NCBI GenBank assembly: GCA_035376985.1
Contig: DAOSSA010000004.1
Location: 24 to 64,023, forward strand
Direction of reading: 5' to 3'
DNA: 64,000 nt
From: Candidatus Brevefilum sp.
GTDB taxonomy: Bacteria; Chloroflexota; Anaerolineae; Anaerolineales; Anaerolineaceae
The position numbers were made by a program, and so were the translations under genes. The notes below the pieces were generated by a model. The model had not been told where the DNA came from, did no database searches, and saw only the letters and a program-made list of their open reading frames with translations. Shown in pieces: positions 3,841 through 52,570 of this stretch (position 1 is its first letter; each line of letters opens with the position of its first letter).

Positions 3841-5010
3841 ATGGCAAGAAAAAGTGGTCAAAATCAGGGTAGTGTCACAAAAAGAAAAAATGGATCTTAT
3901 ATGGTCCAGCTGACTGCAGATGGTAATAGGCTCACCAAGTACTTCAAGACTAAAAAAGAGGCTAATGCCTGGCGAATTGAAACACTGCAAAAAATCCAGA
4001 GCGGATTGTTTTATGCTGGTCCAAGATTGACCTTGTCAGAATATTTTGAGGAATGGCTGGTGGCGCGTAAGGACTCGATTAAACTGAAAACCCTTTACCA
4101 GTACCGACAAATTATCAAGCAACATATTAACCCTGTTCTTGGGAATATCAAGATCAATGAACTGCAGCCTGCAGAGATCCAGGCGTTGTATAATAAGAAA
4201 GTTGAGTCAGGCATTGGGGTGAGGACAGTGGGCTTAATCCATTCTGTCTTGCATTGTGCTTTAAACCATGCGCTTAGATTGGGGATTATTTTTCGCAATC
4301 CTTCTGATGCGGTGTATAAACCAAAAGCCCAAAAAAGAGAAATGGAAGTTCTTGATGAAAACCAGGCAAGGATGCTTCTTATTGCTGCGAAAGGGAAAAG
4401 ACATGAAGCCCTTTATAAACTTGCCATTACAACAGGTCTAAGAAAAGGGGAAATCCTTGGATTAAAATGGGGTGACCTGGATTGGGATACCCATCAACTT
4501 AATGTGCAACGTCAAATTCAAAGAGTGCCTCAAGAAGGCTTAGCCTATTCACAACCCAAAACCGCTGCTGGGCGTCGGATGATTATCTTAGGGTCGGATA
4601 CGATTTTGGCATTAAAGGATCACCAAAAAAGGCAGTGGGTTGAAAGAGAGTTTATGAGGGGTAAGTGGAAGGATCACGACCTGATATTTCCGTCTTCAAT
4701 CGGAACGCCTCTAAGTCAAAGCAACCTCAGTCGTGATTATAAACAACTATTACATGAAGCAAACCTACCGGATATTCGGTTTCATGACTTGCGGCATACA
4801 GCTGCTTCCTTGATGTTGAAACAGGGCATTTCTGTAAAGGTTGTTCAGGAGCGCCTTGGTCATAGTGATGCAGCCATGACCTTGAATGTTTACTCCCATG
4901 TGATCCCAGGTATGCAAAGGGAGGCAGCGGAGAAAATGGATGAAATAACCGCAGTGATTGATATCAGTGAGATGCTTGCTAAAGTGGAGAATCAAAATGG
5001 GTTGCAGTAA
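3841..5010 (+). CDS. int: tyrosine recombinase/integrase
   Basis: Catalytic motifs TGLRKGE, FHDLRH, LGHS and final Y (LNVYSH); N-terminal arm-binding domain; adjacent to a tRNA. Confidence 0.95.
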   Translation: MARKSGQNQGSVTKRKNGSYMVQLTADGNRLTKYFKTKKEANAWRIETLQKIQSGLFYAGPRLTLSEYFEEWLVARKDSIKLKTLYQYRQIIKQHINPVLGNIKINELQPAEIQALYNKKVESGIGVRTVGLIHSVLHCALNHALRLGIIFRNPSDAVYKPKAQKREMEVLDENQARMLLIAAKGKRHEALYKLAITTGLRKGEILGLKWGDLDWDTHQLNVQRQIQRVPQEGLAYSQPKTAAGRRMIILGSDTILALKDHQKRQWVEREFMRGKWKDHDLIFPSSIGTPLSQSNLSRDYKQLLHEANLPDIRFHDLRHTAASLMLKQGISVKVVQERLGHSDAAMTLNVYSHVIPGMQREAAEKMDEITAVIDISEMLAKVENQNGLQ

Positions 5011-5021
5011 GGTTGCAGTAA
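5000..5021. repeat. tandem 11-bp direct repeat GGTTGCAGTAA x2, probable integrase arm-type binding sites
   Basis: Exact repeat overlapping the int stop codon, about 80 bp from the tRNA end. Confidence 0.6.
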
Positions 5022-5099
5022 AAAAAGAGCCCTCATTCTATGAACACCCTTTTTACCCCTATATATGGGGATTTGCTTATCCTTTACCGCCATATCTAG

Positions 5100-5172
5100 C
5101 GCCCCCGGGGCGACTCGAACGCCCAACCAACTGATTCGAAGTCAGGTACTCTATCCATTGAGCTACGGGGGC
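5100..5172 (-). tRNA. tRNA-Arg, anticodon TCG (CCA not encoded)
   Basis: Reverse complement folds as a cloverleaf: acceptor GCCCCCG/CGGGGGC, D arm GCTC..GAGT, anticodon loop CTTCGAA, T arm GGGCG-TTCGAGT-CGCCC. Confidence 0.95.
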
Positions 5173-5346
5173 TAACAAGACTATTATACCGTAAAACTTA
5201 TCCAGGCGGGGCAATCATCTCGATGGAAGCGGTCGATTATTTGGTTTGTCTGTTTTACGATCACTCCCTGCGGTTTCTGTTTATGGTATTACCGCTTGTC
5301 GGAACGATCGTTGTCAACCTCAAGCTTTTTTGGACTTACGATATAT

Positions 5347-5420
5347 TGATATCACTCTTGACAAATCTTAAACATATGCTAAGATATCTTTAAGTAAATA
5401 TAAGTGCGATGCTGATATCT
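5347..5420 (+). promoter_or_regulatory. sigma70-type promoter (TTGACA 5358-5363; TGc-TAAGAT 5377-5385) overlapped by three GATATC palindromes
   Basis: TGATATCA 5347-5354, AAGATATCTT 5381-5390, TGATATCT 5413-5420. Confidence 0.5.
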
Positions 5421-7390: not shown

Positions 7391-8869
7391 TTAGTTGTTG
7401 AAGAAGTTGTAGATCGCGCTGCTGATATTGGCAAATAAAATATTGACGGGGTCAAACACTGCCTGAACGGGGTGGTGGGCAAATATCGTTAAAACATAAT
7501 TACCGCCCGGCGAATAGATCAGCGCGGCATTCCCGTAGGTATGCACCAAGCCGTCGGTTTCTATTGCCCAGCCATGCTTATGGGCAATTCTGGTACCCGA
7601 AGGGACGCCAGCCTGGATCAATACGCCAATTTTGTTGAAAAGCATGATGTCGATCATCTGCTGGCATTTTCTTTGCGTGATCTCGTCAGGGAAGGCGGCA
7701 ATGAGTGATCCGCCCGCGCGCTCAGCACACAGGTAGATATCTTCCATTAACATTCCCATATCGGCTGCTGTGGTTTGGTTGTATCGGTCAGGTCGGGTGT
7801 CAACATCGGTGCGCTGGTTGGCTGGCGTTTCGAAGTCCTGCAATAAGGGCGCGCCAACATAAAAATGGCCAGCCCAAAAGGTGTTCTCCAAGCCTAGGCG
7901 ATGCATATCAGCAGTGACAATTAAAGGGGACAGGTTGGCGTCAATCACCATCATTGCGAGTTGATCAGTGCTGGTATTTTCAGATTGCTGGATCATCTCT
8001 TCCATCAGGGTAATTGCTTCCTCCGGATAAGGTTCTTCCATGGTGCGAAAGGCGGTGACCATCAGCGGAATTTTCACCAGGCTCCAGGATGAGAAAGCGA
8101 TATTGGGCACCAACTCTTCCCCATTACCCTGATGCGCGAGCAGCAGGTTACGGGTAGAGCCTAAATCCTGCATGTAGACTTCAACAACTCCATCGAAACC
8201 GGAGACCTCGATGATCTGTCGGACCATGACTTCTAAATCCGGTAAGGATGGCCTGGGAATGGATGTTTGGTTCAGGGCGAGATTGACCCGCCGGCTGGTT
8301 GGCGATTTAAGAGCATCAAGAGTCTGAAGTGTTGCCCGGTCGATATCGAGGTTGGTGCCAGAAATACCTTCGGCGAATTGAGCAGTACCAGCTATGGGCA
8401 TCGGGGGAATGGCTGGCGCATCATACCGCGCGCTGATCTCTGTGATCAAATAATCCCGTATACGTTTTTCCTCATAAGATGCACTGAGGGGAACCTTGAT
8501 AACTTTTATCTCCCTTTGCCAGAGGAAATTCCAAAAGCCTGCCCAGAAGGGTTCGGTCACGCGCTGGTTGTCAGCAACAGCCAGCATGTGATCGACCTGC
8601 GGCTCAAACCCCAAAACCGCCGGGCGGATTTGGATTGGGTGGCCATCATAGATGATTTCGATAGGTGAGCGATAAACCAAGTAAAGCCGTTCTGCAGCCT
8701 GGGCATAATTCAACCCGCCAATTGGAACATCGCCGACCTGCATGCCCTGAGGGAAATTATTTCGTAAACGACTGTATTCAACCAGTTGAATCGTCGCCAG
8801 AATCAGGGTGAGGAAACTGATCAGGATGGCAGCCCAACGAAAAAGGGGAAAGCGGTGTCTTTGCTTCAT
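7391..8869 (-). CDS. membrane-anchored serine hydrolase (class A beta-lactamase/PBP-like fold) with N-terminal peptidoglycan-binding-like region
   Basis: N-terminal TM helix; SxxK (SLVK), SxN (SEN) and KHG motifs in class A order. Confidence 0.75.
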   Translation of the reverse strand: MKQRHRFPLFRWAAILISFLTLILATIQLVEYSRLRNNFPQGMQVGDVPIGGLNYAQAAERLYLVYRSPIEIIYDGHPIQIRPAVLGFEPQVDHMLAVADNQRVTEPFWAGFWNFLWQREIKVIKVPLSASYEEKRIRDYLITEISARYDAPAIPPMPIAGTAQFAEGISGTNLDIDRATLQTLDALKSPTSRRVNLALNQTSIPRPSLPDLEVMVRQIIEVSGFDGVVEVYMQDLGSTRNLLLAHQGNGEELVPNIAFSSWSLVKIPLMVTAFRTMEEPYPEEAITLMEEMIQQSENTSTDQLAMMVIDANLSPLIVTADMHRLGLENTFWAGHFYVGAPLLQDFETPANQRTDVDTRPDRYNQTTAADMGMLMEDIYLCAERAGGSLIAAFPDEITQRKCQQMIDIMLFNKIGVLIQAGVPSGTRIAHKHGWAIETDGLVHTYGNAALIYSPGGNYVLTIFAHHPVQAVFDPVNILFANISSAIYNFFNN

Positions 8870-8981
8870 TTAGATTATTGTACTTAATTCGGATCGTTTT
8901 TTACAGAGCCAATCCGTCGCTTCACAGCTTGCCTGATCGGTGAAGACAAGAAAGGATGATAATCAGTGGGCGGTGACCAAT

Positions 8982-9452
8982 TTACAGGTCAGGTGTCATC
9001 GTTTCCAACACTGCCAGGGGTTCAAGGTTGTCGGGTTCTTCGATGAGGGAGTCTGCGTAGTGTGTAAATGCGATTTTCCCGCCTCTTCCGATCAGGATGA
9101 CCGTGGGTGTGCCCAGCGAGAAAAATTTTTGTTCCTGGAAATACATTTTTGCAACCCGTGAGCCCTTGTCGCTCAGGATGGTGTAGGGGGTCGGGTGTTT
9201 GGCAAGGTACCGGTTGATCATAACGGGCCCATTCGGTACCACAACCAAAATTTTTGTGTTTAGGCCAGCAAACTGTTCGTGATCATGGCGCAACTGCGCC
9301 ATATGGTTGGTGCAGTGTGGTCAGGCAAAGCCGATGTTGAAGACGAGCAAAACATGCTGGTCCTGGTACAGGTTTGAGAGGGTGATCGATCTTCCTTCGT
9401 GATCGGGAAGAGAAAAATCGGGGGCCTGGTCTCCAGGGGTGAGTTTTTCCAA
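8982..9452 (-). CDS. peroxiredoxin-like AhpC/TSA selenoprotein (UxxC), in-frame UGA at 9321-9323 read as Sec44
   Basis: TTG start at 9452 after GAGG gives LEKLTPGDQAPDFSLPDHEGRSITLSNLYQDQHVLLVFNIGFA-UGA-PHC, continuing in frame into ORF 8982-9302; downstream SECIS-like hairpin. Confidence 0.9.
9285..9302 (-). promoter_or_regulatory. bacterial SECIS-like hairpin
   Basis: mRNA AUGGCGC-AGUU-GCGCCAU: perfect 7-bp stem, G-containing 4-nt loop, starting 18 nt after the UGA. Confidence 0.75.
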
Positions 9453-9755
9453 AACATACCTCTAATCATTCTGCAGCCGTGTTGATACTGGCTAATAATC
9501 GCATTTGTGACTGGTAATCATACTTGATGATCGTGAAAAACGCCATTTGCTGTTTGCAATCCGCAGAGCCTGTGGAGTTCCCCTGCAGTATTTTGATCAC
9601 CTGGCCTCGGGTACAATCATACAGGCTTTCGTGGTGACAAATCAGAATATTTTAAATACGCGTTGCCCTGATTTAATTTGCATGAGTATTTGACTTGTCA
9701 TTAGGCCAGAGATATACTTTCAACTTGAGATAAGCAAGAAAAATTGGAGGTTGTT

Positions 9756-10826
9756 TTGAAAACTGCATTGATCACAGGCATCACCGGGCAGGATGGTTCC
9801 TACCTGGCTGAGTTGCTTTTACATAAGGGCTATGAAGTTCATGGGTTAATTCGTCGTTCCAGTACTTTCAATACTCGCCGAATTGACCATATCTATCGCG
9901 ATCCCCACGGCAATAACGGAAAGGTTAACCTGTTTTTGCATTATGGCGATGTCACCGCCGGTGACACGCTATTGGACGTGCTTTATAATGTGAAGCCCGA
10001 TGAAGTGTATCATTTAGCAGCCCAGAGCCATGTGCGGGTGAGCTTTGATATGCCCGAATATACCGGCGATGTGACGGGATTGGGTACCGTGCGCATCCTG
10101 GAAGCAATCCGCAAAGCCGGGATGAAATCCCGTTTCTACCAGGCCTCATCCAGTGAGCTTTTCGGCGATTCAAAGCCCCCACAGAGCGAAAACACCCCCT
10201 TCAGGCCGCGCAGCCCCTACGCGGCAGCAAAACTTTACGGTTACTGGATTGCCAACAACTACCGGGAAGGTTATGGTATGTACGCGGTCAATGGCATCCT
10301 GTTCAACCATGAATCGCCGCGCCGTGGCGAGACCTTTGTGACCCGGAAAATCACCCGCGGATTGGCGAATATCATGGCTGGCAACCAGAAGCATCTTTAC
10401 CTGGGCAACCTCGAATCCCGGCGGGATTGGGGGTATGCACCCGAGTATGTGGAGATGATGAACCTGATGCTGCAGCAGGAGCAGCCGGAGGATTTTGTGA
10501 TCGGCACCGGGGAGGCACACACGATTGCGGAGTTTCTGGATGAAGCCTTTGGTTATGTAGATTTGGACTGGCATGATTATGTGCGCATCGACCCGCGATA
10601 CTTGCGACCAACCGAGGTGGATTACCTGGAAGCGGACACAAAAAAGGCCAAAAAGCTGCTCAACTGGGAGCCGCGAGTGAAATTCCATGAGCTGGTGCGG
10701 ATCATGGTCGACGCCGACCTGGCACTGGTCGGTCTGGAAGCACCTGGCGATGGAAAGCGGATCATTGAAGAGAAGTTCTCTGGTTGGCACCGCTGGGAAG
10801 ACCAGGTCGTATCGATGGAACGTTGA
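9756..10826 (+). CDS. gmd: GDP-mannose 4,6-dehydratase
   Basis: [59 protein letters not shown]. Confidence 0.97.
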
Positions 10827-50409: not shown

Positions 50410-51227
50410 AACCGTTTGTGCTCATCCGGGGCGGCGGCGACCTGGCAAGCGGGGTTGCGATTCGATTGCATCGGGTGGGCATTCCTGTTTTAATTGTTGA
50501 AACCAACCAACCAACGGCCGTGCGGCGTTCAGTTGCCTTTGCACAGGCAGTTTATGATGGTGAAGCATTGATCGAAGGCACAGCCGGACGATTGATCGGA
50601 TATCCAGAAGAGATGCTGTCTTGCTGGAACGAGGGCACGGTGCCGGTCATGGTTGACCCCGAACTGGAATTGATTTCAGTTTTCAAACCATTGGTGATTG
50701 TTGATGGGCGGATGCGAAAAACCAGCCAGGTTCTTTCCCTGGATATGGCGCAACTGGTGGTTGGGTTGGGACCGGGATTTACAGCGGGTGAGAACTGCCA
50801 TGCAGCGATTGAAACTAATCGAGGACATTTTCTGGGACGGGTTTACTGGCAGGGCAGTCCGCAAGCAAATACCGGCATCCCAGGGGAGGTTGAGGGTTAT
50901 ACTCGGGAGCGGGTGTTGTATGCCCCGACTGATGGAATTGTTCAGACCCTGGTTGATTTTAGCGACCATGTGCAGCCAGGTGACCCGGTGATTACTATCG
51001 GAAATCAGACCATAAAGGCGTCTCTTGCGGGCCTTGTGCGTGGGCTGATCCACCCGGGTATTTGGGTTAAGCAAGGCACAAAGGTAGCCGATATTGATCC
51101 GCGAACTGAAGATTTTCGCTGCTGGACAGTTTCAGAAAAAGCCCTGGCGATAGGCGGTGGGGTTTTGGAGGCAATTTTGACCCAACCTGAAATTCGTGCT
51201 TCCCTGTGGAATGAACTGGACCAATGA
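50406..51227 (+). CDS. yqeB: selenium-dependent molybdenum hydroxylase system protein YqeB (EF2563 family)
   Basis: VLIRGGGDLASGVA, AVRRSVAF, LGPGF, ETNRGH.LG, GTKVADIDPR, SEKALAIGGGVLEA. Confidence 0.92.
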   Translation: MKPFVLIRGGGDLASGVAIRLHRVGIPVLIVETNQPTAVRRSVAFAQAVYDGEALIEGTAGRLIGYPEEMLSCWNEGTVPVMVDPELELISVFKPLVIVDGRMRKTSQVLSLDMAQLVVGLGPGFTAGENCHAAIETNRGHFLGRVYWQGSPQANTGIPGEVEGYTRERVLYAPTDGIVQTLVDFSDHVQPGDPVITIGNQTIKASLAGLVRGLIHPGIWVKQGTKVADIDPRTEDFRCWTVSEKALAIGGGVLEAILTQPEIRASLWNELDQ

Positions 51228-52570
51228 ACCTGAGGCTGGCGCTCGGATTAACTGGTGTTGAGACGATTGCCTTTACAGGCGCTGGCGGGAAGACCAGCGC
51301 CATGGCAACCCTGGCTATGGAACTGCCACCGCCTGTTGTGATGATCACTACCACGCACCTGGGAAAGTGGCAAGAAGGCATCGCCCAGCAGCATATCATT
51401 ATCACATCGCCTGATGCTTTGAAGAAAAGTGACTTGTTGGGCTTGAAGACGATCCTGGTCACCGGACCTCCCGGTAAAGATGAACGCTGGGGAAGCCTTA
51501 ACCCGGAATCGCTTGAGAAACTATCCCGGATATGCCGTGAAAACGAGGTGCCCTTGCTGATTGAAGCGGATGGCGCTCGTCAATGCCCGCTTAAAGCGCC
51601 TGCAGATTACGAACCGGTGATTCCATCCTGGGTTGACCGGGTGGTGGTTATGGCCGGGCTGGGCGGCCTAAGAAGACGATTGAGTGCGGATACGGTACAC
51701 AGGCCGGAGTTGTTTTCGCAAATAGCCGGTCTGGCGATGGGGGAGGAAATCAAAGTTGAGCATGTGGAACGAGTGTTGCGCTCAACTTCGGGTGGCTTAA
51801 AAGGGACACCGGTTGGGGCGCGCCGAATTTTGTTCTTGAACCAGGCAGAGGATTCGGTTCGGAAAGCCCAGGGGAACAGGCTGGCTAATGCACTTGAGGA
51901 TGTTTACCAGCGGGTGCTGATTGGTTCGCTGGCACAGCCAGAAGCGGACGGACCGGTGTTCAGTGCGCACAGCCAAACGGCTGGTATTATCCTCGCTGCT
52001 GGTGGAAGTGAGCGATTGGGAGTTCCCAAACAGTTTTTAGATTGGTGCGGAAAACCGTTTATCGTCCAGGTGGCGCAAACTGCGCTAACGGCTGGATTAT
52101 CCCCGATGGTCGTGGTTACCGGTGCCCGCCAGACTGAAATAGAGACAGGTTTGGCAAATCTACCGGTCAGGTGTGTGTATAACCCTGAATGGGCGTCGGG
52201 GCAAGCATCATCGCTGAAGGTTGGCTTGAAATCCCTGCCCGACCATTGTGATTGCGCCATGTTTTTGCTCAGCGATCAGCCACAAATTACATCGCACCTG
52301 GTCCGTCAGTTAATTGAGCGGCATCATGCGGTGCGTGCACCGATTACCGCTCCGATGATCCGCGAGCGTCGGGGAAACCCGGTGCTGTTTGCCAGGCAAA
52401 CTTTTGGCGCGTTACGGGAAGTCAGCGGCGATCAGGGCGGGCGAGCCATATTTAACGCTTTTAAAGTTGACTATCTCCCCTGGGTTGATGAGCGTGCCCA
52501 GCTGGATGTTGACCAGGACAGCGACCTGAATAACCTGATCGAGCAGTATTTTGGTGGGCAAGCAAATTAA
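51224..52570 (+). CDS. yqeC: YqeC fused to a MocA-like molybdenum cofactor cytidylyltransferase
   Basis: GAGGKT, LIEADGA...PLKAP (YqeC), then ILAAGGSERLG..K, GQASS, LSDQP, DVD (NTP_transf_3). Confidence 0.9.
   Translation: MNLRLALGLTGVETIAFTGAGGKTSAMATLAMELPPPVVMITTTHLGKWQEGIAQQHIIITSPDALKKSDLLGLKTILVTGPPGKDERWGSLNPESLEKLSRICRENEVPLLIEADGARQCPLKAPADYEPVIPSWVDRVVVMAGLGGLRRRLSADTVHRPELFSQIAGLAMGEEIKVEHVERVLRSTSGGLKGTPVGARRILFLNQAEDSVRKAQGNRLANALEDVYQRVLIGSLAQPEADGPVFSAHSQTAGIILAAGGSERLGVPKQFLDWCGKPFIVQVAQTALTAGLSPMVVVTGARQTEIETGLANLPVRCVYNPEWASGQASSLKVGLKSLPDHCDCAMFLLSDQPQITSHLVRQLIERHHAVRAPITAPMIRERRGNPVLFARQTFGALREVSGDQGGRAIFNAFKVDYLPWVDERAQLDVDQDSDLNNLIEQYFGGQAN

Follow-up and report, generated by a model that had tools for sequence, protein, structure and literature searches.

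A probable UxxC peroxiredoxin-like selenoprotein gene in Candidatus Brevefilum, split in two by standard gene calling

One reading frame across an in-frame TGA

Does an in-frame TGA in a peroxiredoxin-like (Prx-like) coding sequence of Candidatus Brevefilum sp. (Anaerolineae) end a gene, or does it encode selenocysteine (Sec)? The locus lies in a stretch of 64,000 nt from assembly GCA_035376985.1 (contig DAOSSA010000004.1, positions 24 to 64,023), hereafter the window, to which all unprefixed coordinates refer. On the minus strand, 9452..8982 forms one frame of 156 codons in which the sole in-frame stop before the end is the TGA at 9323-9321, codon 44. Gene calling with table 11 cuts this frame into two open reading frames (ORFs), one of 43 aa (9452..9321, from a TTG) and one of 106 aa (9302..8982, from the Met of HMAQLR). 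When the TGA is read through, it stands in the context FNIGFA-U-PHC-TNHMAQLR, and the product has 156 aa (MEKLTPGDQAPDFSLPDHEGRSITLSNLYQDQHVLLVFNIGFA-U-PHCTNHMAQLRHD...TMTPDL). A first-pass annotation of this DNA had already described a split gene with a GAGG-TTG start, and both elements are indeed present on the minus strand (Table 1). We are highly confident that 9452..8982 is one intact gene for a cytoplasmic selenoprotein of 156 residues with a thioredoxin fold of the peroxiredoxin/AhpC-TSA type, and its internal "stop" codon almost certainly encodes Sec.

The TGA is conserved well beyond this genome. A six-frame search of 60 relatives plus the source genome (61 genomes) found homologues in 44, and almost every match contains exactly one in-frame TGA. 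Of 30 aligned homologues, drawn from 29 other genomes, 29 have the TGA in an identical column. The aligned sequences fall into two clades with a mutual protein identity of ~35%: an orthologue clade (57-94% identity, FNIGFA-U-PHC) and a paralogous clade (~35-39% identity, FNRGFx-U-P(H/Y/F)C ... GRxPAQ). The exception to the TGA column is genome G006 (L026), in which a 19-nt insertion, CTCGAAGAGTGCTTCGCAA, separates the TG of the Sec codon from its A. At this locus (C65, about 4910-5381, in a metagenome-assembled genome of the same genus), the insertion shifts the frame and the hairpin stem also carries a G-to-A change; the copy is likely a pseudogene or an assembly error. A wider sample of 300 other genomes drawn evenly from the phylum, plus the source genome (301; match threshold E<=1e-15), yielded 30 genomes with a match (28 new ones, the source genome, and G023), and 29 of these 30 again show exactly one in-frame TGA.

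The coding frame continues across the TGA. The part upstream of the TGA has diversities of 0.29/0.17/0.57 at codon positions 1/2/3 within the orthologue clade, and the downstream part has 0.26/0.16/0.59: both halves are coding and under purifying selection, with the same kind of periodicity on either side. Full-length homologues P0045, P0049, P0062, P0066, P0067, P0071-73, and P0083 have Cys at the TGA column, within C-P-F-C or C-S-H-C, and the Cys codon is TGT in L059 and L060, the two Cys homologues whose DNA was examined. Alignment to Cys homologues thus bears out the earlier claim that the TGA sits exactly at the first Cys position of a CxxC motif.

The codon is also stable across independent data sets. 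We aligned contigs, rather than raw reads, of four independent public runs to the region, namely from activated sludge (2016), an anaerobic digester (2025), a landfill (2018), and a biogas-fermenter RNA sequencing (RNA-seq) library (2025). Contigs of all four runs cover the gene, and 9321-9323 is unchanged in each; the TGC or TGT that the first-pass annotation had allowed for was not seen among them. Five strain-level single-nucleotide polymorphisms in two of the runs (9069, 9090, 9102, 9117, and 9126) each lie at the third position of a codon in the read-through frame. Separately, the activated-sludge run contains a 9.3-kb contig of another organism that matches only the hairpin region (window 9269-9302); its flank reads GFI-U-PFC-RVH, and by its sequence it appears to carry a Sec gene of the paralogous clade with the same core of the selenocysteine insertion sequence (SECIS).

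Hairpin, selenium machinery, and decoding of the TGA

A SECIS-type hairpin lies within the coding sequence just downstream of the TGA. As had been noted before, a perfect 7-bp stem (AUGGCGC/GCGCCAU) with the G-containing loop AGUU starts 18 nt past the UGA; with the U-G pair that RNAfold adds, the hairpin has 8 bp (9303..9284) and starts 17 nt past the UGA. The structure is conserved at the nucleotide level. Across 29 Sec-type sequences, there is essentially no variation in the core 6-bp stem UGGCGC/GCGCCA or in the loop AGUU, and the closing pair is U-G or C-G. The one variable stem pair is GC in 23 sequences, GU in 5, and UA in 1 (G001), the last being a double compensatory change. Covariation statistics are modest because the stem barely varies, and we therefore turned to synonymous-site conservation and to Cys-form controls.

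The stem encodes M-A-Q-L-R, so that conservation of the peptide alone could be suspected. However, the hairpin codons are frozen at their synonymous sites: GCG encodes Ala in 28 of 28 sequences, against 16% in the rest of these genes, TTG encodes Leu in 28 of 28 (13% in the rest), and CAG encodes Gln in 29 of 29 (62% in the rest). Third-position diversity is 0.18 in the hairpin codons and about 0.6 elsewhere, a contrast that is real since third positions elsewhere are near saturation. These frozen sites argue against peptide conservation as the sole cause. Two Cys homologues keep HMAQLR, yet their stems are broken by uncompensated synonymous changes, from CGC to CGA in L059 and from GCG to GCC in L060; this control is small (n=2) but points in the expected direction. 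Other Cys forms vary the peptide itself (HMALLR, HLNQLR, HMARLR, and HMIRLR), while it is constant in Sec forms. An intact, synonymous-frozen hairpin in Sec forms and a decaying one over the same peptide in Cys forms illustrate, on a small scale, a coding sequence under constraint at the RNA level.

The genome (2.35 Mb, 98% complete) encodes the full machinery for Sec. The first-pass annotation had named selA, selB, selC, and selD as the genes to look for, and all are present above curated cut-offs: selA scores 524 bits, selB 357 bits, and selD 335 bits, and a tRNA-Sec with anticodon UCA scores 65.6 bits, with ARAGORN in agreement (tRNA-SeC, tca). TGA also ends ordinary genes here; the neighbouring gmd stops at TGA 10824-10826, with the same C-terminus as its orthologue. 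The selD gene (C26:29702-30628, plus strand) is itself a Sec form with one in-frame TGA (CAG-U-ASK). Its hairpin, GGCGC-GGAA-GCGCU, resembles that of the Prx-like gene, but we do not use it as support because its spacing differs and selD has two candidate hairpins. The formate dehydrogenase alpha gene (C1:38717-40804, minus strand; 767 bits) has no internal stop and is therefore the Cys form in this genome.

Altogether, the anatomy of the gene and what is established for Sec insertion in bacteria suggest how codon 44 would be decoded. We infer that the hairpin, 17-36 nt downstream of UGA-44, serves as the binding site of SelB-GTP-Sec-tRNA(Sec) and that SelB brings selenocysteine to the UGA against the competing release factor 2, whereupon translation would run on to the TAA at 8984..8982.

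Several points weigh against this reading. The folding energy of the single sequence is unremarkable (z = -1.83), and with folding significance this weak we rely on the comparative evidence. Covariation is thin, with one compensatory pair, and one shuffling control (a) equalled the observed values in 15 of 500 shuffles. The sequences compared are related, so probabilities computed from codon usage overstate their independence. No Rfam model matches the hairpin; a scan of 8800-9700 (E<=10) gave no SECIS model, and its only matches, to a snoRNA and a fragment of whalefall-1, were due to chance. The RNA-seq run is known only as contigs and may contain DNA. Finally, the biochemical role is read from the position of the motif only, and the gene neighbours are uninformative.

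Could the TGA have another meaning? If it were a nonsense mutation, or a TGC or TGT miscalled in sequencing or assembly, the gene would be a pseudogene or an artifact, in keeping with the frame being split under table 11 and with the disrupted copy in G006, which shows that decay of this gene occurs. Yet the TGA column is kept in all but one of the aligned homologues, all but one of the phylum-sample matches have a single TGA, no variant appears at the codon in the four independent runs, both halves show the periodicity of purifying selection, and the synonymous sites of the hairpin are conserved; the chance of such an error is negligible, and we regard this explanation as effectively refuted. 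It is also very improbable that the TGA is a true stop between two products, a 43-aa N-terminal peptide and a 106-aa protein restarting at Met51 (ATG 9302..9300). Most database entries do have 104-112 aa and begin at the Met of HMAQLR, where an ATG is present, but neither piece makes a complete domain, since the Pfam match and the AlphaFold2 model (below) need residues 6-128 as one thioredoxin fold. Moreover, the redox motif would straddle the stop, Met51 is preceded by no Shine-Dalgarno-like sequence, the first 43 codons show protein-level conservation in the frame of the remainder, and the Cys homologues are continuous.

We give just as little credence to decoding as an amino acid other than Sec, whether Trp or Gly as in codes 4 and 25 or Cys or Trp through near-cognate read-through. 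Six public calls (P0003, P0004, P0005, P0048, P0068, and P0076) do show W at this position, which is best explained by automatic code-4 gene calling on short metagenome contigs. Against such decoding stand the use of TGA to end ordinary genes such as gmd, the dedicated tRNA-Sec(UCA) with SelA, SelB, and SelD, the conserved SECIS-type hairpin, and the nature of the site itself, a redox-active Cys position at which true homologues have Cys and not Trp.

Table 1. Features of the predicted selenoprotein gene (positions in the window)
Feature	Position	Strand	Description and basis
Predicted complete selenoprotein gene	8982..9452	-	156 codons plus TAA stop (8984-8982); Prx-like thiol:disulfide oxidoreductase with U44-P-H-C47; from the read-through frame, Pfam, the AlphaFold2 model, and TM 0.84-0.91 to BCP/AhpE
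Shine-Dalgarno-like AGAGG	9459..9463	-	6-nt spacer to the start codon; GGAGG-like block at the same place in homologues
TTG start codon	9450..9452	-	First start after the upstream in-frame stop; aligned orthologues have TTG, GTG, or ATG
In-frame UGA, codon 44, putatively read as selenocysteine	9321..9323	-	Column conservation, TGT in Cys homologues, no variant in four runs
TGC codon, Cys47, second residue of UxxC	9312..9314	-	Aligns with the peroxidatic Cys of BCP/PrxQ (HMMER vs 2cx3); T and G of the codon invariant in the alignment
SECIS-type hairpin UAUGGCGC-AGUU-GCGCCAUG	9284..9303	-	Within the coding sequence, codons H-M-A-Q-L-R-H; stem from 17 nt past the UGA; loop 9295..9292

Fold, active site, and probable chemistry

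Read through as a selenoprotein, the product matches Pfam AhpC-TSA over residues 6-128, spanning the TGA (1.7e-23, 83.3 bits against a gathering score of 26), and Redoxin (3.9e-19). The best NCBIfam match is the SelL-related redox protein NF040769 (59.4 bits, E 3.4e-16), which takes in the N-terminal half with the redox motif but covers only model positions 2-93 of 173; with a score under the NCBI cut-off of 120, membership was rejected. Membership in BCP was rejected as well, both on score (56 bits, cut-off 140) and on catalytic residues. An AlphaFold2 model built with 29 sequences is confident (pLDDT 89.7, pTM 0.87) and shows a single domain in which U44 directly precedes helix alpha1 (residues 45-56). 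Foldseek places this model closest to BCP, AhpE, and other peroxiredoxins (TM 0.84-0.91), with ResA at TM 0.73-0.76. By sequence, the closest solved structures are archaeal BCP/PrxQ (2cx3, 7e-10) and oxidoreductases of the ResA type. On inspection, the N-terminus has no hydrophobic segment, and the protein is therefore probably cytoplasmic.

While the fold is that of a peroxiredoxin, the active site is different. In the HMMER alignment to 2cx3, Cys47 corresponds to the peroxidatic Cys, whereas Sec44 takes the place of the Ser/Thr of PxxxT/SxxC, Ile40 that of the motif Pro, and Pro116 that of the catalytic Arg. Three of the four Prx catalytic residues are thus lost and Cys alone is retained; the PxxxT/SxxC motif with a conserved Arg that marks a canonical peroxiredoxin is absent. 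The motif is instead a thioredoxin-type CxxC with Sec in first place. The first-pass label of a peroxiredoxin-like protein with UxxC was pitched at the right level, given a Prx fold without Prx catalytic residues in which U44 replaces the first Cys. Indeed, the protein has both features that define the Prx-like thiol:disulfide oxidoreductase selenoproteins, a pfam00578 domain and Sec in UxxC, and the gene, from a Brevefilum-like sludge bacterium of the Anaerolineae, is a further member of this kind (PF00578, UxxC), known since 2004.

What chemistry would such a site support? From its motif position, Sec44 at the N-terminal end of helix alpha1 would be the attacking residue, as is the first Cys of a thioredoxin-type CxxC, and Sec44 and Cys47, one helical turn apart, may form a reversible selenenylsulfide. 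The substrate, like Sec insertion itself and the binding of SelB to the hairpin, is something that we infer from this analysis. We consider thiol/selenol-disulfide oxidoreductase chemistry somewhat more likely than peroxidase chemistry, because the Prx catalytic residues are missing, a true PrxU is present in the genome, and published work regards UxxC Prx-like proteins as thioredoxin-like. The protein is not a canonical peroxiredoxin, but it could possibly work as a Sec-based peroxidase.

The genomic context of this argument includes several other Sec-containing candidates. Our own selenoprotein scan of the genome was crude (a codon-usage score plus a hairpin pattern), and only three NCBIfam-checked candidates are to be taken seriously. 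A PrxU candidate outside the window (contig C1, plus strand, TGA 203401; 235 aa) has its in-frame TGA in place of the peroxidatic residue (FTFV-U-PTE). The TGA is followed after 17 nt by a hairpin, UAACAGC-GGUC-GCUGUUA, and the protein scores 370 bits to NCBIfam NF040737 (cut-off 270); the genome therefore has a TxxU Prx as well as the UxxC Prx-like protein. An HdrA2-like candidate (contig C1, minus strand, TGA 65610; 844 aa, DCSI-U-ILAPK) has a 9-bp hairpin and scores 1032 bits to NF040770, just below the cut-off of 1100. A rhodanese-related candidate (contig C12, minus strand, TGA 39220; 153 aa, LTYCT-U-P) scores 59 bits to NF041203, below the cut-off of 115. A Pfam search for GrdB/PrdB gave no match, its controls included, so it is uninformative. 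Within the window, yqeB (50418-51182, plus strand; TIGR03309, 342 bits, cut-off 220) and, beside it, yqeC (51266-51898, plus strand; TIGR03172, 160 bits, cut-off 73) mark the selenium-dependent molybdenum hydroxylase trait. The pair had been reported from this window in the first pass, along with the proposal that selenium serves the organism in two ways, as Sec and through this cofactor trait; the Sec-form selD together with the yqeB/yqeC matches is consistent with that. This small anaerobe thus appears to put Sec into several redox proteins (SelD and the Prx-like protein, with PrxU, HdrA2-like, and rhodanese-related candidates) besides the yqeB/yqeC trait.

A peroxidase remains the main competitor for the function of the protein. 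In this case, a peroxide would oxidise Sec44 to a selenenic acid and Cys47 would resolve it, much like a glutathione peroxidase (GPx) on a Prx scaffold, and the protein would be no protein-disulfide oxidoreductase. The nearest folds are peroxidases (BCP/PrxQ/AhpE), the top PDB sequence matches are BCPs, Cys47 aligns with a peroxidatic Cys, and Sec is, as general knowledge has it, highly reactive with peroxides (PMC13188914). We nevertheless hold this to be unlikely, if a serious alternative, since the Pro, Thr, and Arg positions have become Ile40, Sec44, and Pro116, PrxU already gives the genome a genuine Sec peroxiredoxin, and UxxC Prx-like proteins are placed as thioredoxin-like in the literature (PMC1088965). 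No operon partner favours either chemistry.

A more speculative idea, which we consider improbable, is that the FN(I/R)GFxU-P-x-C...HMAQLR proteins of Chloroflexota make up an enzyme class of their own that is almost obligately Sec-dependent, with a Se-S centre on a BCP scaffold stripped of Pro, Thr, and Arg, and with a substrate other than generic peroxides or generic protein disulfides. In such a class, Sec may have taken the slot of the peroxiredoxin catalytic Thr beside a retained Cys at the peroxidatic position, and possible substrates would include a specific persulfide, selenide, or hydroperoxide of low molecular weight. The GRxPAQ arginine, retained in the paralogous clade, is gone from the clade of the window; were the proteins a separate class, this loss would make the latter clade a further specialised branch.

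Gene neighbourhood and comparison with known systems

Downstream of the selenoprotein gene lies a beta-lactamase-family gene, and gmd is divergent; this arrangement is kept in G024 and not in G036. A promoter and terminator scan found nothing on the gene's strand. A 69-aa ORF started by ATG (window 9260-9469, minus strand, other frame) overlaps the 5' half of the gene; spurious calls of this kind can hide the true TTG start. In the paralogous clade, one locus (L034, G014:C2, 498-3441) has the gene directly after an alpha/beta-hydrolase gene and followed by an NAD(P)-binding (NmrA/SDR-like) gene, with a ferritin-like gene of 151 aa nearby. The stretch just upstream of the paralogous-clade starts is conserved among loci and in L034 is the 3' end of the hydrolase gene, which suggests that the alpha/beta-hydrolase and the paralogous-clade gene form a conserved gene pair.

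The hairpin compares well with bacterial SECIS elements of the E. coli fdhF type and with the bSECISearch consensus: the coding sequence forms a stem-loop directly 3' of the UGA, and the small loop at its apex contains a G (AGUU), both common features of bacterial SECIS (PMC1088965). It differs in that its stem is short, perfect, and GC-rich, its conserved core has no bulged U, and it has no counterpart among Rfam models.

Among proteins, BCP/PrxQ and AhpE (PDB 2cx3, 3hjp, and 4x0x) share the overall fold, with Cys47 at the position of the peroxidatic Cys, but their PxxxTxxC...R set is not kept here. In PrxU (NF040737), Sec is at the peroxidatic position of TxxU, whereas Sec44 belongs to UxxC. 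NF040769, the SelL-related family (bacterial, of the PRX_like2 type; eukaryotic SelL has UxxU), is the best NCBIfam match yet below its cut-off. In ResA/TlpA/CcmG proteins (e.g., PDB 1su9), as here, a Prx-related scaffold carries a thioredoxin-like CxxC where helix alpha1 starts, with a structural match of E about 1e-11, and the P-H dipeptide of U-P-H-C occurs in DsbA and in 3c71, a ResA variant with C-P-H-C. Those proteins, however, are membrane-anchored or periplasmic and use Cys, while this one has Sec and, on inspection, no signal peptide or anchor, and its TM to them is lower than to the peroxiredoxins.

The closest relation is to the Prx-like selenoproteins. Selenoprotein families are defined by a domain plus a Sec motif, and the Prx-like thiol:disulfide oxidoreductase, for which these are pfam00578 and UxxC or UxxU, was predicted in 2004 (PMC9312934, PMC13188914). 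It has also been named "Prx-like protein" or "Prx-like 1" and goes back to Kryukov & Gladyshev 2004 (PMC1088965, PMC2398784, PMC9312934, PMC13188914); the GOS paper counts 225 sequences of "Prx-like 1" (pfam00578, UxxC) (PMC2398784). Reviews name no biochemically characterised member of the family (PMC9312934, PMC13188914). Our result is an annotation fix rather than a new mechanism, it leaves knowledge of Sec decoding unchanged, and its main value lies in annotation. Public protein collections hold this clade almost only as "peroxiredoxin" fragments of 104-112 residues without an active site, or else as sequences in which Trp takes the place of Sec, and because databases hold these wrong forms, functional and selenoproteome surveys of Anaerolineae in sludge and digesters will miss the protein. 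Like other Prx-like selenoproteins, it exceeds the PF00578 gathering score, has Sec first in UxxC rather than in the TxxU of Sec-peroxiredoxins, has Cys homologues with CxxC, carries a hairpin with a G in the apical loop just downstream of the UGA, and is truncated by gene callers. Set against the family by its definition, rather than against the exemplar WP_010940744.1 (Geobacter), it belongs to a distinct Anaerolineae/Chloroflexota branch with the signature FNIGFA-U-PHC-TNHMAQLRHD ... VPNGP ... GTPT ... HYAxSxIEEPDN.

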